From: a virus | UHGV virus genome: UHGV-0091795 | DNA length: 44,295 bases | Strand: one strand, 5' to 3' | Part shown: positions 10,842 to 44,245 of the stretch, piece by piece | How positions within the stretch are numbered: position 1 is the stretch's first letter | How the letters are laid out: each line of letters opens with the position of its first letter | Made by a program: the position numbers and the translations under genes | Notes under the pieces: generated by a model | What the model was told of the DNA's origin: nothing | Database searches by the model: none | What the model saw: the letters and a program-made list of their open reading frames with translations, nothing else

Positions 10842-10865
10842 AGACTGACCTCAAAAAGGACTGCG

Positions 10866-12773: not shown

Positions 12774-12857
12774 GCTTCATCTCCTCATTTATACGGACGG
12801 CCTCTGCCTCCAGATCAGCAAAGTGGGAAATAGCCGTCCGGCGAAGTTCAAGGGGGT

Positions 12858-18419: not shown

Positions 18420-18433
18420 CGTATTTCTCCTGA

Positions 18434-19120: not shown

Positions 19121-20303
19121 CGGAGGGTTTCGTGGTCATGTTCATCGGTGTGAGATAGACATCCCCACCGGGACGCGGATTCATATCTTCCAGGTCGCGG
19201 CAGTCATTGGGAGAGTAAATTCCCCAGTTAATCCCGGTGGCGTAGGCTTCAAAACGGGACTTCATATCCCCGCGCAGTAACGCCCCGGCGTTAAATTTGG
19301 CGTAATAAACGCCCTGCTTACTTTTTCGTACCAGTCCGGTGTTGATCCGCTGCTCAATGCGGGTCAGATACGGCACCAGTGAATAGTTGATAAATCCCAG
19401 CCCCAGTTCTTCGATATTGTTGAAGGTGGCACGATCGGTGTTCTGCACCATGTGCAATGGCACACGGAACAGACGACAGATTTCTTCAAGCTGAAACTTG
19501 CGGGTTTCCAGGAACTGGCTGTCCTCGGCGTTCAGCGCCATCGACTTCCAGTCCAGCCCCATCTCAAGGATCATCGGGCGGTGAGCATTGCCAAGCCCGG
19601 TGTGACGCTCCTCAAAATCTTTCTTCAGGCGCTCATAAGCCTGATCTGACAGCGTCTGCTCTGTACGCAACACACCCGACGTCACCGCGCCATTGCTGAA
19701 CAGTCTGGCCCCGTGCTCTTCGGTCGCAGCTGCCAGCGATATTGCCTCGCGGGCATAGGCGATGGGATTCAGCCCCACCAGTCCGTCCAGCGTCAGCGTA
19801 CGCACATGCCAGATATCCTCCTGGCTCAGTACATCCGTGGAGCCATCCGGGAATGTGACCTGATAGATCGGCTCCCAGCTACTGTTAAGCTTCGGTACCA
19901 CACAGCCGGGATCGACGGGCAGCAGTTCAGCCACTTCGCCAAATGCTTTCACTTTGTAGGCGTAAAAGTTTCCCCGCAGGCACAGACAGGTGACCACCAG
20001 CTCCCAGAACTCCTGCGGCGTCATATAGCCATTGGGATGCGTGGAGATCAGCTTATGCAGACGTTCGCCAGTGGCTCTCTGCTTCAGGCTGCCGTTCAGG
20101 TGATACAGGTTGCAGGGCAACATCCCGACCGACTCCGCCAGCACCCTGACGCAGGAAAAAACCGCCGTCAGTCGCATGGCCCTCTGGCTGCTGATCTGCT
20201 TTCCGGTATAGGTGTCGTATGACAGCCCGATAGCATCCGCCAGCTCTGCTGGCGTGGTCACCGGTGCGTCACTTTTTCGTTGAAATAATCCCGAAAAGAA
20301 CAC
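19062..20303 (-). CDS. portal protein (HK97 family)
   Basis: 413-aa ORF downstream of the large terminase. Confidence 0.75.
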   Translation of the reverse strand: MFFSGLFQRKSDAPVTTPAELADAIGLSYDTYTGKQISSQRAMRLTAVFSCVRVLAESVGMLPCNLYHLNGSLKQRATGERLHKLISTHPNGYMTPQEFWELVVTCLCLRGNFYAYKVKAFGEVAELLPVDPGCVVPKLNSSWEPIYQVTFPDGSTDVLSQEDIWHVRTLTLDGLVGLNPIAYAREAISLAAATEEHGARLFSNGAVTSGVLRTEQTLSDQAYERLKKDFEERHTGLGNAHRPMILEMGLDWKSMALNAEDSQFLETRKFQLEEICRLFRVPLHMVQNTDRATFNNIEELGLGFINYSLVPYLTRIEQRINTGLVRKSKQGVYYAKFNAGALLRGDMKSRFEAYATGINWGIYSPNDCRDLEDMNPRPGGDVYLTPMNMTTKPSDGSKAGKQKDNANADETTS

Positions 20304-20485
20304 TATTTACCTCCACCAACAGACATCTGTGTACGGTCGAGATATCGCGCCACCAGCCACGACCAGAACAGGCACAACGCCCCGGCAACAACAAACCCCG
20401 CAGGGGGATAAATCAGCCAGGCACCATACGCCAGCAAAAGCACCCCCAGCACGCCCACCAGAGGCGCGAGAATCAGCATGATCAT
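20303..20485 (-). CDS. small membrane protein
   Basis: 60-aa hydrophobic ORF (two predicted TM segments) whose stop abuts the portal start. Confidence 0.35.
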
Positions 20486-20496
20486 AATTACCTCAG

Positions 20497-22230
20497 TTAA
20501 AGCGAGCGGATCCCGTAGGACTCAATGTGATCAGACAGCGTGTCTTCTTTCTCGTACAGCATGGCTCTGCCAACCGCCATAATCAGCGCAACTGCACCAT
20601 CGATTTTGTTTTCCGCCTGCTCTTTGACGGGCTTCACCACATCATCGTTACCCGGAATGGTTTTGCCGACCACGTTGCCGATACACCAGGTCATGATGGG
20701 ATTGCCATCATGATGAAAGCGCCCCGATTCAATTGCCGCTTCCAGCTCTTTCATCGGGTCGGACATGTTGGTGTAGTTCTGAATGATGGTGATGGGATTC
20801 AGGTCTTCATCAGCAAGGTCATGTGACAGCCCGGTCGCCCCGAAGGGGTCGATGGGTGACTCGCTGACCGGGCTGATTTTGTTCGCCGCTTTGGCCTCTT
20901 CGAGGATGTAGCGATAATCCACCTCTGCACCATCGGTAACGGTCAGGACGCCCATTTCCACCCATTTCTGAAAGCGTTCGGCTGTCCGGCGATCTTCATT
21001 TTTCTCGACGCTGTACACCGTGTCATACGGTACCCAGAAACGCGGGGCCACACTGTAGTAATGCGTTTTACCGTCAATCTCGCGGGTATAAAGTCGCGCC
21101 ATGCTGTTCATATCCAGCTTACGGGCCAGGTCAAAGGCCAGAATGCACGGCTGCCCCTCGAACTGCTCAAGGGTCAGTGATTTATCCTCGCAGCTCTGCC
21201 AGCTCACCAGGTTGAAATACGCCGAACGCGCCGACACCCAGATATTGAGGTGTTTTGTTTTAAAGACGTTTGCCAGACGGGCGTTATTTTTCGCACGCTG
21301 CTGCTGACTTAACAAAAATTCGCGATAAACCGACACGCCAATATTTGGATTGGCTTTTTCCAGCACCTGCGGGTTGGTCCAGTCGTCACCTTCGTCAACG
21401 GTATAGATGATCCCGAACAGTTCATCGTTGGGTACCGAACCGTTGAGCATCTCGATAACTTCCCGTCGCTTGTCGTAGCACGGCCCCTCAATGTTGTACC
21501 CGGCAGTAGTAATGGCCCACATCAGTGGCTGACGTCGCGCCCCCATCCCGGTAAGCATCGTGGTGTAAAGCGCATCGGTGGCGTGCTCGTGATATTCATC
21601 CACCACCGCACAGTGGGGTGATGAACCATCACCGGGGTTACCGATCAGCGGTTCAAACCGCGCGCCATCCTCCGGACGATTCATGTTTGAGGCGTTAACC
21701 TCAATCCCGAACGCTTCCGTCAGCATGGGTGTGCGTTTACACATCAGTCGCGCCGGGCGAAAGACTTCCCACGCCTGTTTCTCTGTCGTGGCACCGGAAT
21801 ACACTTCCGCGCCAAACTCGTTATCACAGGCAAAACAATACAGGGCAACACCGGCAGAGATTGCCGATTTGCCGTTCTTACGGGGGATTTCGGTATACAC
21901 CTCCCGGAAGCGGCGCAACCGGGTGCCTTTATTGACCCAGCCAAACGCACAGCAGATCACAAATAGCTGCCACGGCTCCAGCGTGATGGGCATCCTCTTG
22001 AATGCCCACTCACCCTTGGTGTGCGGCAACAGCTGAATAAATTTCGCGGCCCGTTCAGCCAGGTCCTTGTCGAAGCGGTAACGAAACGACTTACTTTTTT
22101 CCGCCATCAGGTCATCAAGATGGCGCTGGCAGGCCTGAATCACAAACTGGCAGGCCACAATCTTTCCGCGAACGACATCCCGGGCATACTGATTGGCAGC
22201 ATTTACGTTGGGGTAAGATTTCCGGCTCAT
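20497..22230 (-). CDS. terminase large subunit
   Basis: 577-aa ORF with ATPase and nuclease regions, upstream of the portal gene. Confidence 0.8.
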
Positions 22231-25522: not shown

Positions 25523-26263
25523 TTACATCATGTTTTTTTCTAAAAAAAATCTTGATGAATATTGATGGGGAGGAACACCAAAATACCTTCTGAAAACACT
25601 TACAAAATATGACGTGTTTTCATAACCGCATATCTCAGCAACTTTTCCAACAGAATATAAATTGTAGCTTAATAACCTTTCCGCCATCACCATTCGCTCT
25701 TCAAGAATTAACTTACTAAATGATAAGCCTTCGTCTTTTAATTTTCTTTTTAACAAACTCTCGCTCATATATAATCTTGAAGATATATCACAAAGTCTCC
25801 ATGACGCTGAGATATCCGTGTGAATAATAGCCTTAACTTTACTTCCCAAACTATTAAGACATCCAAATAAAAAACTTTGCACTATTTTCTCTGAAGATAA
25901 GATAGCAAGACATGCAAGTGATATTTGATTTCTAACAAAATCCACAGTTCTGCCATCACAATTCAAGCATGCAATCAAGTTCTTTAACAATGAAAAATCT
26001 TCACATTCCACCATCAAGTATGCCGGATAAAACCTTCTTACAGAAAAAGGTGAGAGTGTGTTGCTTTTAAAGAAATCATTAACTGTTTTCTCTTCAACAT
26101 CTACGATCATTACATGATCTACATTTGATGAAAAAAAATCTTTTAAATTGTAATCAATGAGAACAGCACTTCCTTTTTTAAACAAAATATCTTCTTTACC
26201 AATTCGGACATCAAACGAGTTCAACACCAAAATGATAGAACATATGTATGGCATATTATCCAC
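25523..26263 (-). CDS. AraC-family transcriptional regulator (moron)
   Basis: 246-aa AT-rich ORF whose C-terminus (VGKVAEICGYENTSYFVSVFRRYFGVPPHQY) is a classic AraC-type HTH. Confidence 0.7.
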   Translation of the reverse strand: MDNMPYICSIILVLNSFDVRIGKEDILFKKGSAVLIDYNLKDFFSSNVDHVMIVDVEEKTVNDFFKSNTLSPFSVRRFYPAYLMVECEDFSLLKNLIACLNCDGRTVDFVRNQISLACLAILSSEKIVQSFLFGCLNSLGSKVKAIIHTDISASWRLCDISSRLYMSESLLKRKLKDEGLSFSKLILEERMVMAERLLSYNLYSVGKVAEICGYENTSYFVSVFRRYFGVPPHQYSSRFFLEKNMM

Positions 26264-26359
26264 CTGATATCATTGGGGTTACACCAGGTAAGTATAGGTG
26301 AAATGATCTTACCCAGCAATAGTGGACACGCGGCTAAGTGAGTAAACTCTCAGTCAGAG

Positions 26360-26668
26360 GTGACTCACATGACAAAAACAGTATCAACCAGTAAAAAACC
26401 CCGTAAACAGCATTCGCCTGAATTTCGCAGTGAAGCCCTGAAGCTTGCTGAACGCATCGGTGTTACTGCCGCAGCCCGTGAACTCAGCCTGTATGAATCA
26501 CAGCTCTACAACTGGCGCAGTAAACAGCAAAATCAGCAGACGTCTTCTGAACGTGAACTGGAGATGTCTACCGAGATTGCACGTCTCAAACGCCAGCTGG
26601 CAGAACGGGATGAAGAGCTGGCTATCCTCCAAAAGGCCGCGACATACTTCGCGAAGCGCCTGAAATGA
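26360..26668 (+). CDS. insE: IS3 transposase OrfA
   Basis: 102-aa [35 protein letters not shown]... with HTH and leucine zipper, matching IS3 OrfA. Confidence 0.9.
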
Positions 26669-27531
26669 AGTATGTCTTTATTGAAAAACATCAGGCTGAG
26701 TTCAGCATCAAAGCAATGTGCCGCGTGCTCCGGGTGGCCCGCAGCGGCTGGTATACGTGGTGTCAGCGGCGGACAAGGATAAGCACGCGTCAGCAGTTCC
26801 GCCAACACTGCGACAGCGTTGTCCTCGCGGCTTTTACCCGGTCAAAACAGCGTTACGGTGCCCCACGCCTGACGGATGAACTGCGTGCTCAGGGTTACCC
26901 CTTTAACGTAAAAACCGTGGCGGCAAGCCTGCGCCGTCAGGGACTGAGGGCAAAGGCCTCCCGGAAGTTCAGCCCGGTCAGCTACCGCGCACACGGCCTG
27001 CCTGTGTCAGAAAATCTGTTGGAGCAGGATTTTTACGCCAGTGGCCCGAACCAGAAGTGGGCAGGAGACATCACGTACTTACGTACAGATGAAGGCTGGC
27101 TGTATCTGGCAGTGGTCATTGACCTGTGGTCACGTGCCGTTATTGGCTGGTCAATGTCGCCACGCATGACGGCGCAACTGGCCTGCGATGCCCTGCAGAT
27201 GGCGCTGTGGCGGCGTAAGAGGCCCCGGAACGTTATCGTTCACACGGACCGTGGAGGCCAGTACTGTTCAGCAGATTATCAGGCGCAACTGAAGCGGCAT
27301 AATCTGCGTGGAAGTATGAGCGCAAAAGGTTGCTGCTACGATAATGCCTGCGTGGAAAGCTTCTTTCATTCGCTGAAAGTGGAATGTATCCATGGAGAAC
27401 ACTTTATCAGCCGGGAAATAATGCGGGCAACGGTGTTTAATTATATCGAATGTGATTACAATCGGTGGCGGCGGCACAGTTGGTGTGGCGGCCTCAGTCC
27501 GGAACAATTTGAAAACAAGAACCTCGCTTAG
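26665..27531 (+). CDS. insF: IS3 transposase OrfB (DDE catalytic domain)
   Basis: 288-aa ORF overlapping orfA in the -1 frame, the IS3 frameshift arrangement; contains a DDE integrase-core region. Confidence 0.9.
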
Positions 27532-27866
27532 GCCTGTGTCCATATTACGTGGGTAGGATCAAAAAATCAATATTCGCCAGTTCAACAATAAGGAAAATTT
27601 CATTGCATCACAAGTATAAAATTATGTATTTAACTCACAAAGACAAATTATTAAACCAATCTGTTATATTATATATAGCTGCGTGGAATCATAATATTAT
27701 ATATTTTGACTGGCATGTTTACCAACTTTAAGTTGCATCTCAATTGTTTCTTCAGCGTAAACAGAGTTTTTATACAAACTGACACTCTGGGTATCATAGT
27801 GTAGTTTTTACGATTGTAAATATCCTGTATGCAGGAACTCATCCTTTTGGATGATATCGCATACAA

Positions 27867-28826
27867 TTAATTTACCATCAGTCTTAGAGCCAGTTCGTCC
27901 GGATAGGGATCGAAGTAATTCTGTGTAAGCAAGTAATCATTAGGATACTCACCCAGATAATGCTTCAGCAGAGTCAACGGCGCAAGAAGAGGTAATGTGC
28001 CAGAACGATAGTTAAGTATAACCTCGCTCAACTCTTTACGCTGGCGTGTACTTAAGTAGTTACTAAAATACCCCTGTATATGCATCAGCACATTCGTGTG
28101 ATTTTTACGTGATGCAGGTTTTCTGAGAATCGCCATCAGCTTATCACGATACACCTCAAAGTATGATTCAAGATCCGCCCACTCGTGTATTGCAGCCACA
28201 AATGGTCCCATATCTTTATAGCCTGTCTGATTATGCGCCAACAACTGAAGCTTATAACGACTATGAAAAGCCAATAACTCTCTTCTTGATAATTTCTCCT
28301 TGTAAAGGTGATTGAGCTCATGCAAAGCAAAAACTCTTTCAACAAAATTCTCACGAAGCACTGGATCATGTAATCGCCCATCCTCTTCAACCGGTAGCCA
28401 GGAAAACTTTTCCATCAAAGTGCTCGTAAATAGTCCCACTCCATCTTTACGACCTCGATTACCATTTTCATCATAGACACGCACGCGCTCCATGCCACAG
28501 CTGGGAGATTTAGCACAAACCACAAACCCCGATACATCCTTTAATTTGTCCATATAAGAACGACTAAACTCTGTCATTCTCTCTGTCACATCCTCATTCT
28601 GGTCGTGGCTGAAACACATCCGTATATTTCCTTGCGTCGAGCGCACAAGACGTAGAGCAGGACGCGGAACTGGCAGCCCTATAGCCATTTCCGGACATAC
28701 TGGTCTGAATGTTACCCATTCCACTAATTTGTCCATTAAAAAGTCAGCTCTTTTGTGACCACCATCAAAACGAACAGCAGAACCGGCCAAACAACCGCTG
28801 ATTCCAATCACAGGTTTTTTTATCAT
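27867..28826 (-). CDS. DUF523/DUF1722-family protein (moron)
   Basis: 319-aa ORF; N-terminus MIKKPVIGISGCLAGSAVRFDGGH matches the Cys-containing DUF523-type start, followed by a DUF1722-like C-terminal part. Lies in AT-rich surroundings. Confidence 0.55.
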   Translation of the reverse strand: MIKKPVIGISGCLAGSAVRFDGGHKRADFLMDKLVEWVTFRPVCPEMAIGLPVPRPALRLVRSTQGNIRMCFSHDQNEDVTERMTEFSRSYMDKLKDVSGFVVCAKSPSCGMERVRVYDENGNRGRKDGVGLFTSTLMEKFSWLPVEEDGRLHDPVLRENFVERVFALHELNHLYKEKLSRRELLAFHSRYKLQLLAHNQTGYKDMGPFVAAIHEWADLESYFEVYRDKLMAILRKPASRKNHTNVLMHIQGYFSNYLSTRQRKELSEVILNYRSGTLPLLAPLTLLKHYLGEYPNDYLLTQNYFDPYPDELALRLMVN

Positions 28827-29018
28827 ATCCTCCCCCTTGACTAATTCATTAACACATAAACTGTGTAGTGCACGGAATAAATTGCCTTTCTGGCGTCATC
28901 ACTGACAATTTTTCTGTTATGGACTATTCCTAATATAGTATGAAAGTTCTTTAAGTGATCGGTCGTAATCATCTATCTTTCATACTTACTCTCAACTATC
29001 AAAAGTACAGGATTTATT

Positions 29019-29543
29019 ATGAAGTTATGGCCTGTGTTGACTGGCATTGCGCTCTCTTTCACTCTTATAGCATGTAAGGCCCCGACACCACCTAAAGGTG
29101 TGCAGCCGATTACAAATTTTGACGCCAACCGCTACCTCGGAAAATGGTATGAAATAGCTCGCCTCGAGAACCGGTTCGAACGTGGTCTGGAACAGGTCAG
29201 CGCTACTTATGGAAAACGGAACGACGGAGGGATTCGTGTACTTAACCGTGGATACGATCCAACGAAAAATAAATGGAGCGAGAGCGAAGGTAAAGCATAC
29301 TTTACTGGAGATACTAAAACTGCAGCGTTGAAGGTTTCGTTTTTTGGCCCCTTCTATGGTGGCTATAATGTAATCAAACTGGATGATGAGTATAAGTATG
29401 CTCTTGTCAGTGGTCCGAACAGAGAATACCTATGGATTCTGGCAAGGACCTCAACTATTCCAGATAAAGTAAAAGCAGACTATGTGCGAACCGCTCAAAA
29501 GTTGGGATTCAATGTCAATGAATTATTATGGGTTAAACAATAA
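29019..29543 (+). CDS. blc: outer-membrane lipocalin (Blc-like lipoprotein)
   Basis: 174-aa ORF with lipoprotein signal (LIAC) and strong similarity to E. coli Blc (NFDANRYLGKWYEIARLENRFERGLE ... KVSFFGPFYGGYNVI). Confidence 0.8.
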   Translation: MKLWPVLTGIALSFTLIACKAPTPPKGVQPITNFDANRYLGKWYEIARLENRFERGLEQVSATYGKRNDGGIRVLNRGYDPTKNKWSESEGKAYFTGDTKTAALKVSFFGPFYGGYNVIKLDDEYKYALVSGPNREYLWILARTSTIPDKVKADYVRTAQKLGFNVNELLWVKQ

Positions 29544-30297: not shown

Positions 30298-30660
30298 TCA
30301 TTCATTCCCCATTTCGGTGATGGTCAGTTCCAGCCTCCCACCTTTGGTAACAGGCATCTTCACAACGCGGTAATCAACGACCTGAGCATCATCCAGCCAG
30401 AAACCTGCTTTGGTGAGTGCGTCAAAAGCGGCTTTTTGCAGATTATCCAGGTCACGGCGACGGCGATCCGGCATGTGGCACTCAATACGGATTTTCACTG
30501 GCATAGCCAGGCCGATATCCAGCATTGCGTTTTTAATGATTCGGGTGACGTTATCGCGGTATGCCTGCCCTTCTGCGCTGATGTGTGTGCGCCCGCGATT
30601 ATGGCGGTAGTAGCGGTTATTGCTCGGCGGCCAGGGTAGTGTGATGTGGTAAGTATTCAC
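30298..30660 (-). CDS. rusA: Holliday-junction resolvase RusA
   Basis: 120-aa [39 protein letters not shown]..., the RusA family signature, in the nin region. Confidence 0.85.
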
Positions 30661-30947
30661 GCCTTAATTACCCCCTCTTTCAGCCAGATAACCTGCGTTC
30701 TCGCCATACCTTCCAGCGCGCATTCTTTTGCATATCCAGCGTTAACAAAATTCGTGCGACGGTCGATCTCATCGTGACAGGCAGAACATGCAATGGTGGC
30801 AATCAGGTCTGGCGGTTTAATACCGGTGCCGCACAATCCAGCCAGCCGGATATGTGCCAGTACAGACGTTTCAGGATTGCCATTACATACGCCAGGGATT
30901 CTTACCTGGCATTCCCGACCACGCGCTGCTTTTCTCAAATCAGCCAT
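30657..30947 (-). CDS. YbcO-like protein (DUF1364, putative nuclease)
   Basis: Cys-rich ORF starting at MADLRK with an upstream aggagg RBS, in the nin-region position of DLP12 ybcO. Confidence 0.55.
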
Positions 30948-31086
30948 GGTTCCTCCTTGCTGCCAGTCGCAACCATTTTTTATCAACCAGGCTGGCGGTA
31001 TATCCGAGCAGTGTTGGTATTTCGGATGGTTTCAGCTCAGGCTTACGCTTACGACGATTTGGTACTCTGTAGATGTGTCCGCTCAT
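30940..31086 (-). CDS. ninE: NinE-like small protein
   Basis: 48-aa ORF found by manual translation ([48 protein letters not shown]), basic N-terminus, in the nin-region position. Confidence 0.5.
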   Translation of the reverse strand: MSGHIYRVPNRRKRKPELKPSEIPTLLGYTASLVDKKWLRLAARRNHG

Positions 31087-31109: not shown

Positions 31110-31565
31110 TTACGCCTCCTGCTTGTCGCGCAGCAGCTGGAACTCGCAGCTCTGCGGAATAGTCAGGTGGCAGCCAATATTCATCGCCCAGGCTTCAACC
31201 TTACACAGGAAGACATACATCTCTCCGGTATCAAGATCGGAGGTATGGCGTAATGACTGAATAGTGGTGATCTCACCGGATACGACATCAACCAGTTCTT
31301 TGGTTTCATAACCGAGATAAGTGTGTTTGAGAGCATCTTTTACCCAATCTGGAGTGGCGAACGTTTTACCCCTGCTGATGAGGTATTCACTGATTTCGCT
31401 GTACCACATGTGGCTAAGTGCATTCTGGGAAAGACTGCGTCTCTCCCGCCACGGTTTAAGCACCATGCGAAAGCATTTGCCTTCCTCCAGATAAGGCTGG
31501 ATCTGCTGGCCGATAGCGGTGAAGTTGCCGCGATGTAATTTGATGCCGTCTTGTGGGAGGTTCAC
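31110..31565 (-). CDS. YbcN-like protein (DUF1367)
   Basis: 151-aa ORF in the nin region, resembling DLP12 YbcN. Confidence 0.55.
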
Positions 31566-31991
31566 GCTTCACCTCCGCAGAGGTCAAACGCAGGATGCAA
31601 AAAATCGCAGGTGCATTTCTGCATCTGTGAAGGGAGAAGAGAGTTTGGATTGTATGTGCGCATAAACGTCCCCGTTTAGCGCAACCCCACCACCGGGTGT
31701 TCAGGCCGACAGTAACTATATTATTCCCTACTGATTTTTGAAAATCAAAGGTCTTTATACGTCACACGAGAGCAAATATTTCCGAAGAAGAAACCTTTCG
31801 CCTTGAAAGGATAAAGAGTTCATTTCATAAATTGAAATATTCAATAAGAATATTGCAAAAAATGAAATTATTTACTAGCGAGTCTATCTAACTGATAATT
31901 ATGAAGATTGTAAGCGGTAGCAATCACCCGCATACACATTGAACAGGATTTAATACAAAACGTCTTAAATTGTCCGTAAGGAATAGCACGA

Positions 31992-33494
31992 ATGACTCAA
32001 ACTCCTCTATTACTTGCAATCATATTTTTATTGGTTGTTCTTGTTCTTTATATAGCTGCAATCAAACGCATCAAAAAAATACAATTAGAATTAAGTGATA
32101 GCAATCAAAAAAATGAAGAATACAAATCTCGCTTTGCAGATTATTTTAATGTAGAAGAAGAATGTAAGAAGCTTATTGAGAAAACAGAGCAAGAATGCTC
32201 CATAATAAAAGAAGAATCCCTAAAAGTAAAAGAAAATGCCAATAATGAACTAACAAACACCATTGAAAAAATGGATGGTATCAATAAACAAATCCAAGAG
32301 CTAAGAAGAACTTATAAAGAGAAGAAAGAAATATATGATAAACTAGTAAGGCAAATTTCTATTTATTCAGAAGATGTTGAGCTAGCCGAACTAGGATTTT
32401 ACGAACCTCATTTTAATTTTGAAGATTCAGAGCAATTTAAAAACAAAATAAAATCCATCAGGGATGAACAGAAATTAATGCTGCGGGATAAAACCCACTC
32501 TGGCGCAGTATATTGTACAACCCAATGGACTGTTGAAGGCTCTCGAGCAGAGGGTAAAAAAATGACAGACAGAAATATCAGGCTAACTACTAGAGCATTT
32601 AATAATGAATGTGATGCTGCAATTAGCAATTGCACGTGGAAAAACATCACTAAAATGGAAGAACGCATCACAAAGGCATTTGAGGCCATAAATAAACTAA
32701 ACGAGCAAAATCACATATATATAAACACTAAATACCTCAATAAAAAACTTGAGGAATTGTGGCTTACCCATGAATATCGTGAGCAAAAACAGAAAGAAAA
32801 AGAAGAACAGGCAGAAATAAGGGCACAAATGAGAGAGGAGGAGCGTGCACAACGAGAAATAGAAAAGGCCATGCAAGACGCAGAGGCAGAAGAGCGCCGT
32901 TATAAAAAAGCAATTGAAGCTGCAAGAAAGGAAATGGAAAAAGTTACTGGTGACATGAAGCAGCGCCTCGAAAATCGCATTGCCGAACTAGAACAGAGTT
33001 TGTCGCAGGCTGAATCAAAGCATCAAAGAGCATTATCCATGGCACAACAAACCAAACAAGGTCATGTTTATATTATTTCGAACATAGGTTCTTTTGGGGA
33101 GAATGTTTATAAAATAGGCATGACACGACGTCTTGATCCGCAAGACCGTGTAAATGAGCTCGGTGATGCATCTGTTCCTTTTATTTTTGATGTACATGCC
33201 ATGATTTATTCGGAGGACGCTCCATCATTAGAAAAAAAACTACATGATGTCTTCGATAAAAAGAGAGTCAATCTTGTAAATCGTAGAAAAGAGTTTTTCT
33301 ATGTTACTCTGGATGAGATCAAAGAAGCTGTTAAAAAACACTCTGATTCAGAAATTGAATTTATTGAGACAGCAGTCGCAAAAGACTTTAATGAGTCATT
33401 GGCTATTCGTAATCATGAAAATAAAAAAAGTGACAACAGCAACTCATCAATTATACCTGAGCGAAAAACCCCAGAGTTTGCAGATGCAATTTAA
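31992..33494 (+). CDS. membrane-anchored coiled-coil protein with C-terminal T5orf172/GIY-YIG-like domain (DUF4041-like architecture)
   Basis: 500-aa AT-rich ORF. It has an N-terminal TM helix (LLLAIIFLLVVLVLYIAAI), a long Lys/Glu-rich coiled-coil, and a C-terminal block GHVYIISNIGSFGENVYKIGMTRRLDPQDRVNELGD...FFYVTLDEIKEAV typical of the T5orf172 (GIY-YIG superfamily) domain. Transcribed opposite to the flanking early-right genes. Confidence 0.6.
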   Translation: MTQTPLLLAIIFLLVVLVLYIAAIKRIKKIQLELSDSNQKNEEYKSRFADYFNVEEECKKLIEKTEQECSIIKEESLKVKENANNELTNTIEKMDGINKQIQELRRTYKEKKEIYDKLVRQISIYSEDVELAELGFYEPHFNFEDSEQFKNKIKSIRDEQKLMLRDKTHSGAVYCTTQWTVEGSRAEGKKMTDRNIRLTTRAFNNECDAAISNCTWKNITKMEERITKAFEAINKLNEQNHIYINTKYLNKKLEELWLTHEYREQKQKEKEEQAEIRAQMREEERAQREIEKAMQDAEAEERRYKKAIEAARKEMEKVTGDMKQRLENRIAELEQSLSQAESKHQRALSMAQQTKQGHVYIISNIGSFGENVYKIGMTRRLDPQDRVNELGDASVPFIFDVHAMIYSEDAPSLEKKLHDVFDKKRVNLVNRRKEFFYVTLDEIKEAVKKHSDSEIEFIETAVAKDFNESLAIRNHENKKSDNSNSSIIPERKTPEFADAI

Positions 33495-33742: not shown

Positions 33743-34045
33743 TCACAGCAAGTTTAAGTTCATATCTCCATACACTGCCAACACTCGTTTCATCGCGGCA
33801 CTCTGGCGACACTCCTTGAAAATCAGATTCGTGCTCACCTTTCCTTCCCGTTCTTCCCTGGTAGCGAAGCGGTAATACACCGTTCGCCAGACCTTACCAT
33901 CAATGACTAAGATTCCTGCCCGTGCCATTTTAGCCGCAGCCTGATTTATACTGGTTACTGTTGCGCCTGTTACCGCAGCAACGTCCTGCGCACAGAAGCT
34001 CTTATGCGTCCCCAGGTAATGAATAATTGCCTCTTTGCCCATCAT
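33743..34045 (-). CDS. ren: Ren protein
   Basis: 100-aa ORF MMGKEAIIHYLGTHKSFCAQDVAAVTGATVTSINQAAAKMARAGILVIDGKVWRTVYYRFATREEREGK, near-identical to lambda Ren. Confidence 0.85.
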   Translation of the reverse strand: MMGKEAIIHYLGTHKSFCAQDVAAVTGATVTSINQAAAKMARAGILVIDGKVWRTVYYRFATREEREGKVSTNLIFKECRQSAAMKRVLAVYGDMNLNLL

Positions 34046-34743
34046 ACAGTTGCTCCTTTCAGTCCGAACTTCGCTTTGATTTCTGCGATCTTCGCCAGAG
34101 CCTGTGCACGATTTAGAGGTCTACCGCCCATGACAGGAAGTTGTTTTACTGGTTCAGGTATCGCCTCACCACGGTTAATTCGCGCGGTCATACAAGTCAG
34201 TTCATCGGCAGCCTTGCGCCGTAATTCCGCATCAGTAAGCGCATTGGCCCGCATGTTCTGGTACAGGTTGGTAACCAGCCAGTAGTGCGCGTTTGATTTC
34301 CACGGATAAGACTCTGCATCCGGATACAGGCCACGCTTCCGACAATACTCATAGACCATATCAACCAGCTCGCTGACGTTTGGCAGCCCGGCGTTAACGG
34401 ATGCTTCTTCCCGGCACCAGGCAACAAACTGCCCGGGTGATGGCAGGAATGGTCGATTCTGCCGACGGGCTACGCGCATTCCTGCGTTAACCTGTTCCAT
34501 TGTGGTGATCCCGTTTTCCCGGAAAGCCAGCACCCACTGGCGGCGGATTTCGTTCAGTTCGTTCTGGTCCCGGTTAGCCACGCTCGCCGGGAAAGTTGCC
34601 AGTAACTGGCGGAACACACCATTGATAATCTGCGCTACCTGCTGTACCTGCGGCTTTTCGTCGTACTGTTCCGGCATGTTATTGGCGATCCGGCGCATCT
34701 GCTCACGGTCAAAATTAACTATCTGTGCGGCGATGTTTTTCAT
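34042..34743 (-). CDS. P: replication protein P (DnaB helicase loader)
   Basis: 233-aa ORF MKNIAAQIVNFDREQMRRIANNMPEQYDEKPQVQQVAQIINGVF..., near-identical to lambda P. Confidence 0.9.
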   Translation of the reverse strand: MKNIAAQIVNFDREQMRRIANNMPEQYDEKPQVQQVAQIINGVFRQLLATFPASVANRDQNELNEIRRQWVLAFRENGITTMEQVNAGMRVARRQNRPFLPSPGQFVAWCREEASVNAGLPNVSELVDMVYEYCRKRGLYPDAESYPWKSNAHYWLVTNLYQNMRANALTDAELRRKAADELTCMTARINRGEAIPEPVKQLPVMGGRPLNRAQALAKIAEIKAKFGLKGATV

Positions 34744-35669
34744 AGCTCCACCCCGTAAATCCAGTCAGTGTTCGTCAGGTCGAGTTTTGATTTTCCGGCT
34801 GTCACGCCAGCCTGTTGCTTGTTACGGTTGATTTCGAGTTGGGTCCACTTGTCGCGGAGTTTGGCCGGACTTAGCACGTTACCGGACCAGAAGTTGTCCT
34901 GGCATGCCCAGCGGAACAGCACGCACATGTCGCGGTGGTTACGTCCGTCACGTTCACGCATCAGGCGGATATCGTTAGCCCACCCTGCAAAATTCGGTTT
35001 TCTGGCTGATGGCGCGATGATCTTCACCATGTCAAACATCCACTCTGCGGCGGTCAGGTCTTCTGCTGTCCCCCACTTGCTGCCGCTCTGAATCGCAGCA
35101 TCCGGTTTCACCACAGGAAGGGCATTTTCTGGCTGGTCAGAGGATTCGTCAGAATTCTCGGACGAAAAAGGTTTTATATTGTCTTTTGTTAGTTTGTCTT
35201 TTGTGTTTACCTGATTCGGGTAAGTGCCTTTACCTGATTTGGGTAAACTTTTCTTACCTGATTCAGGTAAATTTATCTCTTTCAGGTAAACTTTATTTTT
35301 CTTACCTGATTCGGGTAATGTTGACCATTCACTGACCACATTATTAATGCCGATATTCCGCCCGCTCTGAATAAGAATCCCACGCTTTACCAGAACGCTT
35401 TTTGCAGCAGAACACTTGTGCGGCAATATCCCGGTTAACTCGGAAAGTTGCTCGTTGCTCACCCAATCCAGTTTTTTATTAAAGCCATATGTTTTGCGCA
35501 TGACAGCCAGGAAGACCAGAAGCTGGTGCTGTGTTAATCCGGCCAGCATTACAGCTTCCAGCAACTCATTTGCAATGCGCGTATAACCATCATCGAGATC
35601 TGCCACGCGCGGCTCCTTTTGTGCCACATCCGGCACTGGAAAATTGAATATCTCAGCAGTGTTTGCCAT
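34740..35669 (-). CDS. O: replication initiator O
   Basis: C-terminal half is near-identical to lambda O (KPDAAIQSGSKWGTAEDLTAAEWMFDMV...TNTDWIYGVEL); the N-terminal DNA-binding part is diverged. Start chosen at MANTAEIFNF with a gggagg RBS; the iterons lie inside the gene. Confidence 0.85.
   Translation of the reverse strand: MANTAEIFNFPVPDVAQKEPRVADLDDGYTRIANELLEAVMLAGLTQHQLLVFLAVMRKTYGFNKKLDWVSNEQLSELTGILPHKCSAAKSVLVKRGILIQSGRNIGINNVVSEWSTLPESGKKNKVYLKEINLPESGKKSLPKSGKGTYPNQVNTKDKLTKDNIKPFSSENSDESSDQPENALPVVKPDAAIQSGSKWGTAEDLTAAEWMFDMVKIIAPSARKPNFAGWANDIRLMRERDGRNHRDMCVLFRWACQDNFWSGNVLSPAKLRDKWTQLEINRNKQQAGVTAGKSKLDLTNTDWIYGVEL
35207..35318. repeat. replication origin iterons (O-binding sites)
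   Basis: Four copies of the 17-bp palindrome-like repeat TTACCTGATT(C/T/C)(G/G/A)GGTAA at 35207, 35230, 35254 and 35302, plus a degenerate copy near 35281, with roughly 24-bp periodicity inside O. Confidence 0.8.
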
Positions 35670-35755
35670 AATTCCTCCCGCAATGAGTGTGTTACGATTT
35701 GCACCTGAAAGTCGGTTCTGTTCGCGCAGACCGGCTTTCGCCATTTCTGAACCTG

Positions 35756-36295
35756 TCATATTGCCCCCAGCATGGTGGTGACCATCGCCATCAGTGGACC
35801 AGCCAGATCCGGGTCCACACGAAACATCGACACAATGCCTTCACTCATCTCCTTCAGTTTCTGGTGGCGTGGTGCGTTGAGAATGACAGCCTGTTTTGCC
35901 TCACTGAGTTCCTTTTCCATTTCAGCCAGCCGAGCCATGAAGCTATCCTGCTCAACCAGGTGGCCGCGATATTCCAGCGGTAGTACCGCCAGAATTGCCG
36001 GGGTCAGTTCACGCACGTTATTTCGGTATTTTTCAGAATCGAATTTGTTATCGAGGAAGCGGAACAGCTTCTGGCGTGCACGGCTGACATCATCAGGGAA
36101 ATCGATGGTGCCGCCGCCCTGCTCCCGATACTCATTCACAATGAGTGCGGCAACAACATCCTGATTATCTGCAGCCGACCAGGCGCGGACGGCATCACGG
36201 ATTTTTTCGTGGCCTGGCGCCTGTTTTGTTTGAGAACGATTTATCACCGCAGTCGGGCTAAATCCGCTAGTCTGTTGGTATGTAAGTGGTTGCAT
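35756..36295 (-). CDS. YdaT-like protein in the cII position
   Basis: 179-aa ORF immediately downstream of cro; the segment LTPAILAVLPLEYRGHL resembles Rac prophage YdaT. Confidence 0.45.
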   Translation of the reverse strand: MQPLTYQQTSGFSPTAVINRSQTKQAPGHEKIRDAVRAWSAADNQDVVAALIVNEYREQGGGTIDFPDDVSRARQKLFRFLDNKFDSEKYRNNVRELTPAILAVLPLEYRGHLVEQDSFMARLAEMEKELSEAKQAVILNAPRHQKLKEMSEGIVSMFRVDPDLAGPLMAMVTTMLGAI

Positions 36296-36627: not shown

Positions 36628-36656
36628 TTGACCATCAATACGCAAGCGTATAAATT
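36628..36656 (+). promoter_or_regulatory. pRM-like promoter for cI (near-leaderless transcript)
   Basis: -35 TTGACC (36628-36633) with a TATAAAT-like -10 at about 36649-36656, only a few nt before the cI ATG at 36664. Confidence 0.4.
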
Positions 36657-36663
36657 AAAACTT

Positions 36664-37356
36664 ATGAAAAAAGAAACTCTTGCTGATCGCTTAAACCTAG
36701 CGATGGAACAATCTGGAATGTCTCAAGGCGCTCTTGCAAAGGCGTCTGGCGTAGCTCAACCCACAATCTGGAGACTGACAAGCGGCAACGCGCGCGGCTC
36801 AACAAAAATTGTTGAAATAGCTAATGCATTGGGTGTTCGAACAGAGTGGCTTTCATCAGGCATAGGCCCGATGAGAAATGACGGTCAACAATCAGGAAAG
36901 CCTGCTGTCAACCATTCCAAATACTTCAAGATTGACGTTCTTGATATAGAAGTCAGTGCTGGGCCGGGTGTCATCAACCGTGAGTTTGTAGAAGTCCTAC
37001 GCTCGGTTGAGTACTCGTTTGACGATGCTCGTCACATGTTCGATGGCAGGAAGGCAGAAAATATCCGCATCATTAACGTACGCGGTGACAGCATGTCAGG
37101 AACGATCGAACCAGGTGATCTGCTGTTCGTTGATATCACTGTTAAATCTTTCGACGGTGATGGTATCTATGCGTTTCTGTACGACGACACTGCCCATGTA
37201 AAGCGCCTGCAAATGATGAAGGATAAGCTGCTGGTTATCTCTGATAACAAGAGCTACTCACCGTGGGATCCGATCGAGAAAGACGAGATGAACCGAGTGT
37301 TCATCTTTGGGAAAGTTATTGGGAGTATGCCTCAGACATATAGGAAGCATGGTTAA
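36664..37356 (+). CDS. cI: CI-like repressor (HTH + S24 LexA-like autopeptidase domain)
   Basis: N-terminal HTH (MSQGALAKASGVAQPTIWRL) and C-terminal S24 motifs (VRGDSMSGTIEPGDLLFVD, HVKRL Ser/Lys dyad). Confidence 0.8.
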   Translation: MKKETLADRLNLAMEQSGMSQGALAKASGVAQPTIWRLTSGNARGSTKIVEIANALGVRTEWLSSGIGPMRNDGQQSGKPAVNHSKYFKIDVLDIEVSAGPGVINREFVEVLRSVEYSFDDARHMFDGRKAENIRIINVRGDSMSGTIEPGDLLFVDITVKSFDGDGIYAFLYDDTAHVKRLQMMKDKLLVISDNKSYSPWDPIEKDEMNRVFIFGKVIGSMPQTYRKHG

Positions 37357-37478
37357 AGTGAGGCTAAAAAACAGTTACAGCAATAGGCCTGTTGTTTTTC
37401 TTTAAACACGCAGTGTTAAACCGCTCTTTGAGATGCGGAGTAATGAGATGGAAGACTTGAATCACATAAGGGTTAGTG

Positions 37479-38228
37479 ATGGAGTGCGTAGCGAGCAGCA
37501 ATAGTGCAATACCTAATGTCGTTGAGGTAATACGTCGCATCAATGAAGGTTCCACTCAGCCATTTCTTTGCAAATGTGATGATGGGCAGTTGTATGTTTT
37601 GAAGTCAAAACCATCAATGCCCCCGAAAAATCTCTTAGCTGAGTTCATTTCGGCGTGTTTGGCTAATGATATCGGCCTTCCTTTACCTGACTTTAAAATC
37701 GTATTTGTGCCAGAGGAACTTATAGAGTACTCACCTGATCTGCAGCAACAAATTTGTACAGGATATGCCTTTGCTTCATTGTTCATTGACGGTGCAATAG
37801 CGTTAACGTTTACGCAGTCAAGAAACGAAACGATCATCCCAGTCGAACAGCAAAAATTAATCTATGTTTTTGATAAATGGATATTAAATGCAGACAGAAC
37901 GCTTACTGACAAAGGTGGAAACGTTAACATCCTTTATGACATCAGTAACGATAAGTATTATCTGATTGACCATAATCTCTCATTTGATCAGAATGCTGGA
38001 CCTGAAGATTTTTCTGTGCACGTGTACGGCCCTGGTAACCGCAAATGGCAATATGATTTAGTGGATCGCGTAGAGTACCGCCAGAGGGTCGTTAACAGTT
38101 TACACAAGCTTCCTGCTATCCTTGACGAAATTCCAGAAGAGTGGATAGTAGATGAGGAGTTTTTACCTTTTGTCTGCACTACGCTAGACAAAGGTGATTG
38201 TGATGAATTTTGGAGCGCAATAGAATGA
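37479..38228 (+). CDS. kinase-like protein (tentative HipA/PI3K-like catalytic core), first gene of the immunity-region cassette
   Basis: 249-aa ORF directly downstream of cI on the same strand; contains YYLIDHNLSFD, reminiscent of catalytic loops of HipA/PI3K-like atypical kinases. Family assignment is tentative. Confidence 0.45.
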   Translation: MECVASSNSAIPNVVEVIRRINEGSTQPFLCKCDDGQLYVLKSKPSMPPKNLLAEFISACLANDIGLPLPDFKIVFVPEELIEYSPDLQQQICTGYAFASLFIDGAIALTFTQSRNETIIPVEQQKLIYVFDKWILNADRTLTDKGGNVNILYDISNDKYYLIDHNLSFDQNAGPEDFSVHVYGPGNRKWQYDLVDRVEYRQRVVNSLHKLPAILDEIPEEWIVDEEFLPFVCTTLDKGDCDEFWSAIE

Positions 38229-39052
38229 CAACTCCATGCCTATATAGCATCGTTCGCTATGCGCCTTATGCGGAGACTGAAGAGTTCGCAAACATAGGCG
38301 TACTTCTGTGCGCGCCAAAAGAAAATTACTTTGATTTCCAGCTCACAAAGCGAAATGACTCTCGTGTAAAGAATTTTTTCCATGATGATTGTATTTTCCC
38401 TGTAGCAAAAGACTCAATACAAAGAGAACTACAGTTCGCAAAAATGCATGCGACCCAGATTGTTGGACATCAACAACTTGCACAATTCTTCAGATATTTT
38501 ACAAACAAAAAAGAATCAATTTTTCAGTTCAGTTCTACGAGAGTGATTCTCAGCGAAAACCCAAAAGAAGAGCTGGCCCGCATTTACAATAAATATGTAA
38601 ACCACTCTGACTACACAAAAGAGCGCCGTGAAGATGTTCTAGCCAGAGAGCTAAAACGAAGTATCGATAGAATAGATGGATTGAAGAACGTCTTCAAACA
38701 AGCAACCATTGATGGGTATTTCGCAAAGTTCTCAATGCCATTGGTCGCCAAGAAGCATGACAGGATCCAATGTGCCATCAAACCTCTGGCATTCACTCAA
38801 GCTGAACCAGGAAAAATGATGGAGCATAGTGATACTTGGGTGATGAGAATAACTCGAGCAGCAGAAGAAAACCTGCTTTCACTTGATGACATTTTATTCA
38901 CAATTGAAACTCCTGAATCACCAAACTCAGGCCAAAGCAAAGTTATTGACATCATAAAGAGAACTATGGATGCTAAGAAAATAAATCATATACCTGCATC
39001 CAACCACAAAGAAACTATTGATTTTGCAAAAAAAATACTTCCCCAAGTTTAA
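38225..39052 (+). CDS. DUF3037-like protein, second gene of the immunity-region cassette
   Basis: ATG overlaps the upstream stop (ATGA). N-terminus LYSIVRYAPYAETEEFANIGVLL fits the DUF3037-type pattern (Y.I.RY.P....EEF.N.GV.L). Confidence 0.55.
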   Translation: MTTPCLYSIVRYAPYAETEEFANIGVLLCAPKENYFDFQLTKRNDSRVKNFFHDDCIFPVAKDSIQRELQFAKMHATQIVGHQQLAQFFRYFTNKKESIFQFSSTRVILSENPKEELARIYNKYVNHSDYTKERREDVLARELKRSIDRIDGLKNVFKQATIDGYFAKFSMPLVAKKHDRIQCAIKPLAFTQAEPGKMMEHSDTWVMRITRAAEENLLSLDDILFTIETPESPNSGQSKVIDIIKRTMDAKKINHIPASNHKETIDFAKKILPQV

Positions 39053-39087
39053 AATTTATTTTTGTATGTGATATTCCTTATTAATAA

Positions 39088-39114
39088 CCCGGCCACCGTG
39101 CCGGGTTTTCTTTT
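39088..39114 (+). terminator. intrinsic terminator ending the cI-cassette transcript
   Basis: cccggc-caccgt-gccggg hairpin followed by TTTTCTTTT, 36 bp after the DUF3037-like stop. Confidence 0.75.
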
Positions 39115-39254
39115 GCCTCCCCTCATCACACAAACCGCTCAAAAAACCACCACAACCCCGCTTCAGTTATCGCTATGCGATGCAAGTCACAAAATTAATT
39201 CTTTTTGCTATCAAACATTTAATATCAAAACACATCTAACGATAGCAATAAGTA

Positions 39255-39283
39255 TTGATATCACCAATAGCAATAGCTATTAT
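39255..39283 (+). promoter_or_regulatory. pL-like early-left promoter with overlapping operator motifs
   Basis: -35 TTGATA, 17-nt spacer, -10 TATTAT; ATAGCAAT motifs (39242-39249, 39266-39273) match motifs in the cI-cro intergenic region. Confidence 0.55.
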
Positions 39284-39388
39284 CACCATATCGCAACAAC
39301 ACAACGATACGGCAACCACCTGATTCACCGTTGCGATGACCGCTTAGATCCGCAGCTTGATTTCAGCAGGCTCCGGGGAGTGCGAGGG

Positions 39389-39592
39389 GTGAAACGGACG
39401 CGTGAACGTCGGTGTGACCAGCTGAAATCAACTCAACACTTCATACCTCAGTTGCTTCAACGAGGCGACTTAGTTATGACAACCGGCGGCCATCCACCGC
39501 CAAATACTGCGCAACCCCTTATTTGTTCAGCAGCCCAGCTTACGGGCAGGAGTTTTTATGGTTCATCAACATTACGGAACGCAGACCGTTAA
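39389..39592 (+). CDS. candidate N-like antiterminator (arginine-rich N-terminus, GTG start)
   Basis: 67-aa frame beginning GTG with a GGGGAG RBS 8 nt upstream; N-terminus MKRTRERRCDQLK resembles the arginine-rich motif of lambdoid N proteins. Highly tentative. Confidence 0.25.
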   Translation: MKRTRERRCDQLKSTQHFIPQLLQRGDLVMTTGGHPPPNTAQPLICSAAQLTGRSFYGSSTLRNADR

Positions 39593-42883: not shown

Positions 42884-43205
42884 GGCCTGTCAGTTTCTCA
42901 AGATATCCAGACCTACCGCTACCAACTGGATACGAACAGGCCGCCTACAGGCAACACGCAAAGACCCCACTAAACTAAAATCTCCTTACCTCACAACACG
43001 ACAAGCCTGCATTGCGGCACTTCAGTCTCCGCTGCATACTGTCAAGGTGAGCGCGGGTGATGGCATAACAGAGGAAAGAAAATGTCACTCTTCCGCAGAA
43101 GTGAAATATGGTACGCCAGTTTCACATTGCCGAACGGTAAAAGATTTAAACAGTCTCTTGGAACAAAGGACAAAAGGCAGGCGACAGAGCTCCATGACAA
43201 GCTAA
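42855..43205 (+). CDS. xis: excisionase (P22 Xis-like)
   Basis: [38 protein letters not shown]... (winged-helix excisionase), overlapping the int start as in P22. Confidence 0.8.
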
Positions 43206-44245
43206 AGGCTGAAGCATGGCGGGTCAGCAAACTTGGTGAAATACCTGATATGACGTTCGAGGAAGCGTGTGTCAGGTGGCTTGAAGAGAAAGCACATAAA
43301 AAATCACTGGACGATGACAAAAGCCGGATCGGATTCTGGCTTCAACATTTCGCAGGGATGCAATTAAGAGACATTACTGAATCAAAAATTTATTCAGCAA
43401 TTCAGAAAATGACGAACCGGCGTCATGAGGAAAACTGGAAACTCAGGGCAGAAGCATGCAGAAAAAAAGGGAAACCTGTTCCAGAATACACGCCAAAACC
43501 AGCGTCCGTTGCAACGAAGGCAACGCATCTTTCATTTATAAAGGCCCTGCTAAGAGCCGCAGAGCGTGAATGGAAAATGCTGGATAAGGCACCAATTATT
43601 AAAGTGCCTCAACCAAAGAATAAACGGATCCGCTGGCTGGAGCCTCATGAAGCACAAAGGCTGATTGATGAATGTCCGGAGCCATTAAAGTCTGTTGTTG
43701 AATTTGCACTGGCAACAGGTTTAAGACGCTCAAACATCATCAACCTTGAATGGCAACAAATAGACATGCAGCGCCGGGTGGCATGGATAAACCCGGAAGA
43801 GAGTAAATCAAACCGCGCAATTGGCGTTGCGCTGAATGATACTGCATGTCGTGTATTGAAAAAACAAATCGGGAATCATCACCGTTGGGTATTTGTGTAC
43901 AAGGAAAGCTGTACCAAACCAGACGGAACGAAAGCGCCAACAGTAAGGAAGATGCGGTATGACGCAAACACAGCCTGGAAAGCGGCGCTGAGACGGGCTG
44001 GTATTGATGATTTCAGATTTCACGACTTGAGACACACCTGGGCAAGTTGGCTGGTTCAAGCCGGAGTCCCGTTGTCAGTGTTACAGGAAATGGGAGGCTG
44101 GGAGTCTATCGAAATGGTTCGTCGATATGCTCACCTTGCACCTAATCACCTTACCGAACACGCACGGCAAATAGACTCGATCCTGAACCCATCGGTCCCA
44201 AATTTGTCCCAGTCAAAAAATAAGGAAGGTACTAATGATGTGTAA
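43082..44245 (+). CDS. int: tyrosine integrase (P22 Int-like)
   Basis: 387-aa [50 protein letters not shown]... with catalytic region [15 protein letters not shown]...VRRYAHL; ends 14 bp before the tRNA 3' end. Confidence 0.9.

Follow-up and report, generated by a model that had tools for sequence, protein, structure and literature searches.

The known SNIPE/PD-lambda-1 anti-phage nuclease gene recurs unchanged beside ren in a lambdoid prophage with a Mu-like contractile tail

The gene at positions 31992 to 33494 of UHGV virus genome UHGV-0091795 (44,295 nucleotides, analysed as a whole and referred to here as the window) is the published and mechanistically characterised allele of SNIPE, first described as PD-lambda-1, and is therefore already known. 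We regard it, with a probability of about 95%, as a prophage-borne single-gene defence that acts directly and non-abortively, by means of a membrane nuclease which cuts phage DNA during injection. The encoded protein is identical in 500 of 500 amino acids to the CDS annotated as 'PD-lambda-1' in phage PhiR26_1 (PV340555), which we take from its name to be the prophage of ECOR26, the listed host of the record being MG1655. The same protein is deposited as WP_000195116.1, on 100%-identical E. coli DNA, under the RefSeq name 'SNIPE associated domain-containing protein'. Identity to PhiR26_1 extends at the DNA level from about position 31650 to at least 33760, covering the upstream region, the gene and the downstream spacer and running on into ren, so that the promoter and the 3' region are the same in both phages. 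A pseudogene could be ruled out, as the reading frame is uninterrupted and does not differ from the functional reference.

Profile searches led to the same assignment. In the PADLOC library the PD-Lambda-1 model (PDLC03976, 491 positions) matched residues 1–485, that is over its full length, with E=1.9e-198, and the only other matches were PDC-S57 and a marginal LmuB. Among the PHROGs the protein falls into phrog_1847, which is still labelled 'unknown function' and thus lags behind the literature, while an NCBIfam search with the protein gave only sub-threshold coiled-coil noise. PD-lambda-1 was discovered in a functional selection, its source being ECOR26 (RCP76574.1, a 1503-bp gene) with HHpred domains at residues 197–252, 357–448 and 373–449 (Vassallo et al., Nat Microbiol 2022, PMC9519451). 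The domain coordinates of the window protein agree with these to within one residue. The system was later renamed SNIPE and its mechanism resolved by Saxton, DeWeirdt, Doering, Roney and Laub (bioRxiv November 2025; Nature 653:861, February 2026; PMC13190303). All nine residues named in that paper (E414, E223, N250, L253, W257, E264, K305, I308 and T319) are conserved in place here. The window copy and the ECOR26 system thus have in common the complete protein, the flanking non-coding DNA, the domain coordinates and the position next to ren, and differ only in the carrier. The window prophage combines a head of the HK97 type and a contractile, Mu-like tail with a left flank of the phage-82 type (orf33-ybcN), whereas PhiR26_1 is a lambda-type siphovirus in which three additional genes (hypothetical, Rha, hypothetical) separate SNIPE from ybcN.

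The coordinates of the gene, of the segments of its product and of the neighbouring genes are collected in Table 1. The SNIPE ORF is located on the plus strand, while the genes on both sides of it are all encoded on the minus strand, and on the left-hand side they follow the order known from the nin region of phage 82 (record X92588: orf33, orf151, orf56, orf96, rus, orf45, Q). The GC content of the gene is 0.351, that of its intergenic flanks 0.39 and 0.38, compared to values of 0.513 and 0.507 in the adjoining genes and of 0.49 across the window. A reading made earlier from the letters of the window (the sequence-only reading) had described a 500-aa gene inserted between ren and a ybcN-like gene, antisense to the early-right operon and with a GC content clearly below that of its neighbours; the ORF coordinates and ATG start match exactly, the coordinates and strands of the neighbours agree, and the difference in GC amounts to 0.35 vs. 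0.51. It had also called the gene an AT-rich moron in the nin region, which is borne out by the GC trough of foreign composition, the opposite orientation and the presence or absence of the gene between otherwise homologous phages; activity of the gene's own promoter is known from the SNIPE paper.

Table 1. Positions of the SNIPE gene, the parts of its product, its non-coding flanks and the neighbouring genes in the window.
Feature	Position	Strand	Basis or remark
RusA	30298..30660	-	left of SNIPE
YbcO	30657..30986	-	left of SNIPE
ybcN/orf151-like gene	31110..31565	-	left-hand side; RefSeq annotation; weak NinB Pfam match
orf33-like small ORF, 33 codons	31562..31663	-	left-hand neighbour; RefSeq annotation
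5' non-coding DNA of the cassette (region of the native promoter)	31684..31991	+	same DNA as PhiR26_1; homology of SNIPE-less lambdoid phages ends at 31683
Candidate promoter TTTACT-17-GATAAT	31871..31899	+	consensus scan; weak, 9/12 matches
AAGGA	31978..31982	+	upstream of the SNIPE ATG; read from the sequence
SNIPE/PD-lambda-1 ORF	31992..33494	+	ATG start, intact, 500 codons + stop
Single N-terminal TM helix, ~aa 5-24	32004..32063	+	hydropathy; AF2 helix; published PhoA-LacZalpha topology (N-terminus periplasmic, remainder cytoplasmic)
First long helical stalk ('adapter'), ~aa 26-133, poorly conserved	32067..32390	+	AF2 helices 5-47, 54-133
Globular DUF4041 domain, ~aa 143-252 (Pfam core 198-252)	32418..32747	+	Pfam PF13250; AF2 alpha/beta domain
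Second long helical segment/linker, ~aa 253-355, Lys/Glu/Arg-rich	32748..33056	+	AF2 helices 246-317, 321-355
C-terminal T5orf172/MUG113 (GIY-YIG-type) nuclease domain, aa 357-449	33060..33338	+	Pfam, conservation, secondary structure
Catalytic Glu414 codon	33231..33233	+	E at 414, invariant in 36 homologues; published E414A phenotype
Downstream non-coding spacer, to the ren stop codon	33495..33742	+	GC 0.383; identical to PhiR26_1; unmatched in SNIPE-less phages
ren	33743..34045	-	right-hand neighbour, constant anchor of the insertion site; 'protein ren'/'exclusion protein Ren' likewise placed in NZ_CP104526 and PhiR26_1
Replication protein P	34042..34743	-	right of SNIPE
Replication protein O	34740..35759	-	right of SNIPE

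Comparison with phages that do not carry the gene defined the extent of the cassette. The orf33 region (31566..31683) shows 95–98% identity to many lambdoid phages without SNIPE, which places the left boundary near 31684; phage 82, Turner and about 28 further phage records have the flank in common and are devoid of the gene. A search for direct or inverted repeats or target duplications flanking the cassette yielded only short chance matches. In a scan for promoters and terminators the number of sites was not above that of shuffled controls, with a single plus strand candidate before the ATG, and no convincing intrinsic terminator was found on the plus strand of the downstream spacer. From its native promoter SNIPE is reported to defend the cell and to be located constitutively at the membrane (Saxton et al. 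2026, PMC13190303). As the PhiR26_1 copy has the same coding sequence and the same non-coding DNA on both sides, the window copy should be expressed in the lysogen.

Regarding the architecture of the protein, the Kyte-Doolittle plot (19-residue window) has its maximum of 3.37 at residues 6–24, which is the sole hydrophobic segment and is followed by K25, R26, K28 and K29. In an AlphaFold2 model based on 36 homologues, with a mean pLDDT of 77.5, helices at residues 5–47 and 54–133 are followed by a compact alpha/beta unit at about 143–245 with pLDDT mostly >90, two further helices at 246–317 and 321–355, and a C-terminal domain with the order beta-beta-alpha-beta-alpha. In the alignment of the same 36 homologues invariant columns are few before residue 101, in line with the published finding that SNIPE varies most in its N-terminal region (Saxton et al. 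2026, PMC13190303). DUF4041 (PF13250), matched at residues 198–252 with E=1.2e-19, contains many invariant residues, e.g. R201, A202, F203, N204 and C207, and in the second helical segment (about 253–355) charged residues make up 45%. The best-conserved region is the nuclease domain, with invariant G357, H358, V359 and Y360, K374, G376, M377, T378, R379 and R380, E414, N427 and N430. Here Pfam T5orf172 (PF10544) matches at 357–449 with E=6.9e-17 (62.3 bits vs. a gathering threshold of 20) and MUG113 (PF13455) at 373–449 with E=7e-19 (68.6 bits vs. 22.3), and both score stronger with the isolated domain. The sequence-only reading had recognised most of this: the single N-terminal TM helix is supported by the hydropathy maximum, the positive charges behind it and the AF2 helix; the motifs on which it had based a C-terminal T5orf172-type domain (VYIISN, YKIGMT, VNELG and FFYVTLDEI) are present in the translation; and the likeness it saw to DUF4041-T5orf172 proteins is substantiated by the two Pfam matches. 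Its coiled-coil of roughly 300 aa needs revision, since the AF2 model instead has two long helical segments (26–133 and 246–355) with the globular alpha/beta unit between them.

We take T5orf172 and MUG113 to be members of the GIY-YIG clan. Candidates for the GIY-YIG motif residues are V359, Y360 and I362, position 373, K374 and G376, R379, R380 and R386, E414, N427 and N430, all invariant in the 36 homologues except position 373 (Y/F); as judged from the sequence, these would pair with the canonical Tyr, Gly, Arg, Glu and Asn positions. A C-terminal fragment left behind by an IS1 split bears the RefSeq name 'GIY-YIG nuclease family protein'. Foldseek with the full AF2 model returned helical noise, with Slx1 at a non-significant E of 4.7, and a significant match to a GIY-YIG fold was not obtained because the model of the isolated nuclease domain is poor (pLDDT 62). 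PDB chain sequences, searched with the protein and with the domain profile, gave no match below E=0.07. An hhalign comparison of the domain profile with the catalytic domain of I-TevI (the I-TevI sequence used agrees by 100% with the T4 td-intron ORF) reached a probability of only 0.2, both profiles being too shallow (Neff 1.6). The GIY-YIG label therefore rests on the Pfam T5orf172 and MUG113 matches, motif conservation, the RefSeq name of the fragment, the published HHpred/AlphaFold3 analysis, in which the C-terminal domain was assigned to GIY-YIG, and the E414A phenotype (Saxton et al. 2026, PMC13190303). SNIPE would accordingly resemble I-TevI, UvrC and Slx1 in the type of its catalytic domain, as suggested by T5orf172/MUG113, the beta-beta-alpha-beta-alpha order and the conserved Tyr, Arg, Glu and Asn. 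In contrast to SNIPE these enzymes are soluble and are guided by DNA sequence or lesion rather than by location.

What is known of the mechanism comes from experiments on the identical protein. PhoA-LacZalpha fusions located the N-terminus of SNIPE in the periplasm and the remainder in the cytoplasm, and defence was lost with either the E414A substitution or deletion of DUF4041 (PMC13190303). With E414A, DNA was no longer cleaved either, and the TM-less protein ceased to be toxic. In the presence of SNIPE adsorption was unchanged, whereas ParB-marked incoming lambda genomes were reduced about 30-fold (PMC13190303). In proximity labelling SNIPE was found near ManYZ and the tape measure protein of lambda. 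Mutations by which phages escape affect the tape measure protein, which is likewise captured by the pBPA photo-crosslinker at N250, and gain-of-function mutations of SNIPE fall within DUF4041 and the helix behind it (PMC13190303). DUF4041 promotes DNA binding and probably contacts the tape measure protein (PMC13190303). Regarding its spectrum, SNIPE acts against most siphoviruses of the BASEL collection, sensitive ones being for instance Bas14-18, and against no myovirus or podovirus (PMC13190303). The authors leave open what keeps the membrane-bound nuclease from acting on the host DNA and which share in targeting falls to ManYZ and which to the tape measure protein (PMC13190303).

Taken together, the published work on the identical protein gives the following scheme. 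SNIPE, anchored in the inner membrane, is produced constitutively from its own promoter and associates with the ManYZ mannose permease, the route by which lambda DNA enters the cell, as well as with the infecting phage's tape measure protein; the GIY-YIG-type domain, with E414 as catalytic residue, cuts the phage genome into fragments during injection. A resident prophage, once induced, is not attacked (PMC13190303). Tethering to the membrane shields the host chromosome, given that removal of the TM helix leads to relocation to the nucleoid, double-strand breaks and toxicity, and the discrimination between self and non-self is therefore spatial. The window copy should in this way protect its lysogen against lambda-like and other siphoviruses. 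The sequence-only reading had considered a membrane-tethered nuclease-like factor for single-gene defence or exclusion plausible, and precisely this has been demonstrated for the identical protein as PD-lambda-1/SNIPE. The checks it proposed (HMM searches, topology, plating, a mutant of the catalytic Glu, toxicity and DNA breaks) can all be found in the literature with the predicted outcome. Outdated is its remark that no mechanism had been demonstrated, as defence was validated in 2022 and the mechanism followed in the preprint of November 2025 and in Nature in February 2026.

Two other modes of action can be weighed against the same experiments, and we hold each of them to be very improbable. 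According to the first, the membrane protein would sense infection and then kill or arrest its host as an abortive or toxic effector, for instance by cutting the chromosome. This is a frequent mode among single-gene nuclease defences in general, and TM-less SNIPE indeed relocates to the nucleoid, where it is highly toxic in an E414-dependent manner and produces double-strand breaks in the host DNA that can be marked with Gam-GFP (PMC13190303). Full-length SNIPE, however, degrades the phage DNA at entry and the cells survive, as already reported for infected SNIPE-carrying cells in growth and microscopy assays, and PD-lambda-1 was described as a direct defence. Tethering of host DNA to the membrane caused no added SNIPE-dependent toxicity, and the rare genomes that escape SNIPE replicate normally and lyse the cell (PMC13190303), which also argues against a suicidal response.

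The second alternative is a classical superinfection exclusion, i.e. a physical block of injection like that of T4 Imm and the Sie proteins, with T5orf172 merely binding DNA. The setting as a moron beside ren in a lambdoid prophage, the membrane anchor and a UniRef name in which T5orf172 is a 'DNA-binding domain' would all fit such a block. It has little chance of being correct in view of the labelling experiment, in which 32P-labelled DNA was injected in normal amount, equally into SNIPE-carrying and control cells, and yet was fragmented to a smear of <100 bp unless E414 was mutated (PMC13190303); E414A moreover abolishes cleavage and defence alike.

Homing endonucleases couple their catalytic domain to sequence-specific DNA-binding modules. 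That the gene is a selfish mobile element of this kind, placed next to ren by its own spread and without benefit to the host, is the least credible reading of all, for although its foreign GC content, the discrete cassette with sharp breaks of homology and the frequency of GIY-YIG domains in homing endonucleases such as I-TevI could be taken in its favour, it is opposed by the lack of flanking repeats or target duplications, by a TM anchor and DUF4041 architecture unlike that of homing endonucleases, by a profile comparison without detectable similarity to I-TevI (with the shallow profiles given above), by the strong published defence phenotype, and by the occurrence of one and the same allele in four carrier backgrounds with common ren flanks, which fits modular recombination among lambdoid phages.

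Of 5426 complete E. coli genomes, 131 (about 2.4%) contain the SNIPE gene, always on the chromosome and with at least 96.6% identity, and in a few of them it is interrupted by IS5 or IS1. One record in the plasmid collection also contains it. Four carriers were inspected, and in all four SNIPE adjoins ren on the opposite strand. They comprise the lambda-type siphovirus PhiR26_1; a prophage remnant in the bio-ybhC interval, the classical attλ locus; a remnant at the DLP12 site at tRNA-Arg, whose copy of SNIPE is 5'-truncated; and the window prophage, which encodes an HK97-type capsid, terminase, tail sheath, tail tube, a Mu-like tape measure protein (10866..12773), a Mu N-like protein, baseplate J and Mu Gp48. 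Outside of E. coli the nearest protein cluster among the matches listed is 57% identical, the nearest named relatives among them being from Vibrio, Shewanella and Photobacterium. The SNIPE family is very large and comprises at least 8000 database proteins at E ≤ 1e-5. DUF4041-T5orf172 homologues from Vibrio, Shewanella, Photobacterium and Enterobacterales have the same three-part architecture and the invariant nuclease motifs, but their N-terminal regions differ from that of E. coli SNIPE in length and sequence. In the published survey of the family a TM helix is not predicted for 34% of the members, among which PH or DUF4428 domains occur in some (PMC13190303).

Among other defence systems PDC-S57, a single-gene candidate from PADLOC with T5orf172, has the C-terminal nuclease domain in common with SNIPE (E=1.7e-18, residues 354–468) but is short (212–245 profile positions), is devoid of the TM helix, the stalks and DUF4041, and is a computational candidate only. 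Zorya and Kiwa, like SNIPE, sense or act at the site of injection at the membrane (discussion in PMC13190303). They differ from SNIPE in being multi-gene systems of unrelated proteins that are thought to sense perturbation of the envelope, and a sequence relationship to either of them did not emerge from the PADLOC search.

The contractile tail of the window prophage adds an aspect of its own. As no myovirus of the BASEL collection is sensitive to SNIPE and the tail encoded here is Mu-like and contractile, the cassette may act as a one-sided weapon. We propose only tentatively, and consider it rather doubtful, that SNIPE on such a carrier kills competing siphoviruses while admitting phages with its own tail type, and that the position at ren serves as an exchangeable defence slot across morphotypes. 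If this were true, the SNIPE of the window would not exclude the carrier's own kind. The distribution of SNIPE described above is of use for the annotation of such genes and for the prediction of host range in phage therapy. In a wider sense, SNIPE represents a third principle of self/non-self recognition for DNA-cutting immunity, in which location at the point of genome entry is decisive and not sequence or modification. The window adds no new principle to this; it shows a characterised allele circulating unchanged, together with its regulatory DNA, in lambdoid prophages of differing make-up, while cryptic remnants and a phage with a contractile tail are among the carriers of the gene.

In addition to SNIPE, the membrane-anchored anti-phage nuclease, the window encodes a type IV (modification-dependent) restriction enzyme of the GmrSD family at 1448..3337 (+), just past the tail-fibre genes. 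This protein of 629 aa matches PADLOC mREase_IV over its full length (E=0) and contains the Pfam domains GmrSD_N and GmrSD_C; it adds to SNIPE a further defence gene, at the opposite end of the element, and may lie either inside or outside the prophage boundary. Two overlapping genes directly downstream of the cI-like repressor (36628..37356), at 37476..39052 (+), encode a HipA-like kinase (PF20613, 1e-76) and a DUF3037 protein (8e-24), in the position that is the rexAB slot in lambda. The pair shows only a weak match (~1e-15) to the PADLOC candidate system PDC-M66A/B and may be an uncharacterised third module, acting in defence or as a toxin. For the 176-aa ORF that follows (39062..39592) no family match was found. 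Upstream of O, the cII position is occupied by a gene (35756..36295, -) for a YdaT-toxin-domain protein (PF06254, 7e-30), whereas the corresponding gene in PhiR26_1 (PV340555), a phage record with an identical SNIPE protein, is named 'cII', in conflict with the domain annotation.

A cluster of cargo genes, with an IS3-family element inserted in it, occupies 25523..29543, flanked on one side by the Q antiterminator and on the other by the lysis genes (see table). The ren side of orf33, the small ORF flanking the SNIPE cassette, seems to act as a hotspot for cargo genes in general: the lambdoid phage Turner (PP925837.1) lacks SNIPE and has the orf33 flank in common with the window, and its variable region upstream of this flank contains a 508-aa hypothetical protein along with a number of small hypothetical genes. 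At 3589..5792, C-terminal tail-fibre fragments and tail-fibre assembly genes face one another on opposed strands, a layout resembling that of an invertible host-range segment such as Mu G or P1 C.

Features of the window and of phage Turner
Feature	Coordinates	Strand	Remark
Collar-domain ORF	3589..4131	+	
Tfa	4131..4733	+	
Tfa	4705..5166	-	
Fibre	5148..5792	-	
Mu Gp48	5796..6380	-	
Baseplate J	6371..7429	-	
DNA-circularisation-N-like protein	9465..10841	-	
Tape measure	10866..12773	-	
Tail tube	13178..13534	-	
Tail sheath	13534..15030	-	
AraC-family regulator	25523..26263	-	
IS3-family element, transposase ORFs	26360..26668 and 26665..27531	+	within cargo cluster
YbgA-like 2-thiouracil desulfurase/DUF1722 protein	27867..28826	-	
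Lipocalin	29019..29543	+	
Turner 508-aa hypothetical protein	PP925837.1 4441..5967	-	

The integrase (43082..44245, +) comprises 387 aa, the length also of the DLP12 intD annotated in NZ_CP044293.1, an E. coli genome with a prophage remnant at the DLP12 site, where a tRNA-Arg gene lies 16 nt past intD. The comparison points to argU/DLP12 as the integration site. No tRNA was detected in the 44,295-nt window, probably because its end at 44295 falls inside the expected gene.

Damaged SNIPE copies are present in some E. coli genomes. The NZ_CP044293.1 remnant carries one at 20485..21501 (96.6% identity), annotated from an internal start as a protein of 338 aa without the TM helix; others are interrupted by IS5 or IS1. 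As TM-less SNIPE is toxic on expression (PMC13190303), the truncated copy is presumably silent or inactive.

The prophage is lambdoid in its early, replication and nin genes, and its virion module (5796..15030 and 17214..22230, both -) combines an HK97-type capsid and terminase with a Mu-like contractile tail. Since SNIPE reportedly spares myoviruses (PMC13190303), this contractile-tailed carrier may escape exclusion by the SNIPE that it encodes.
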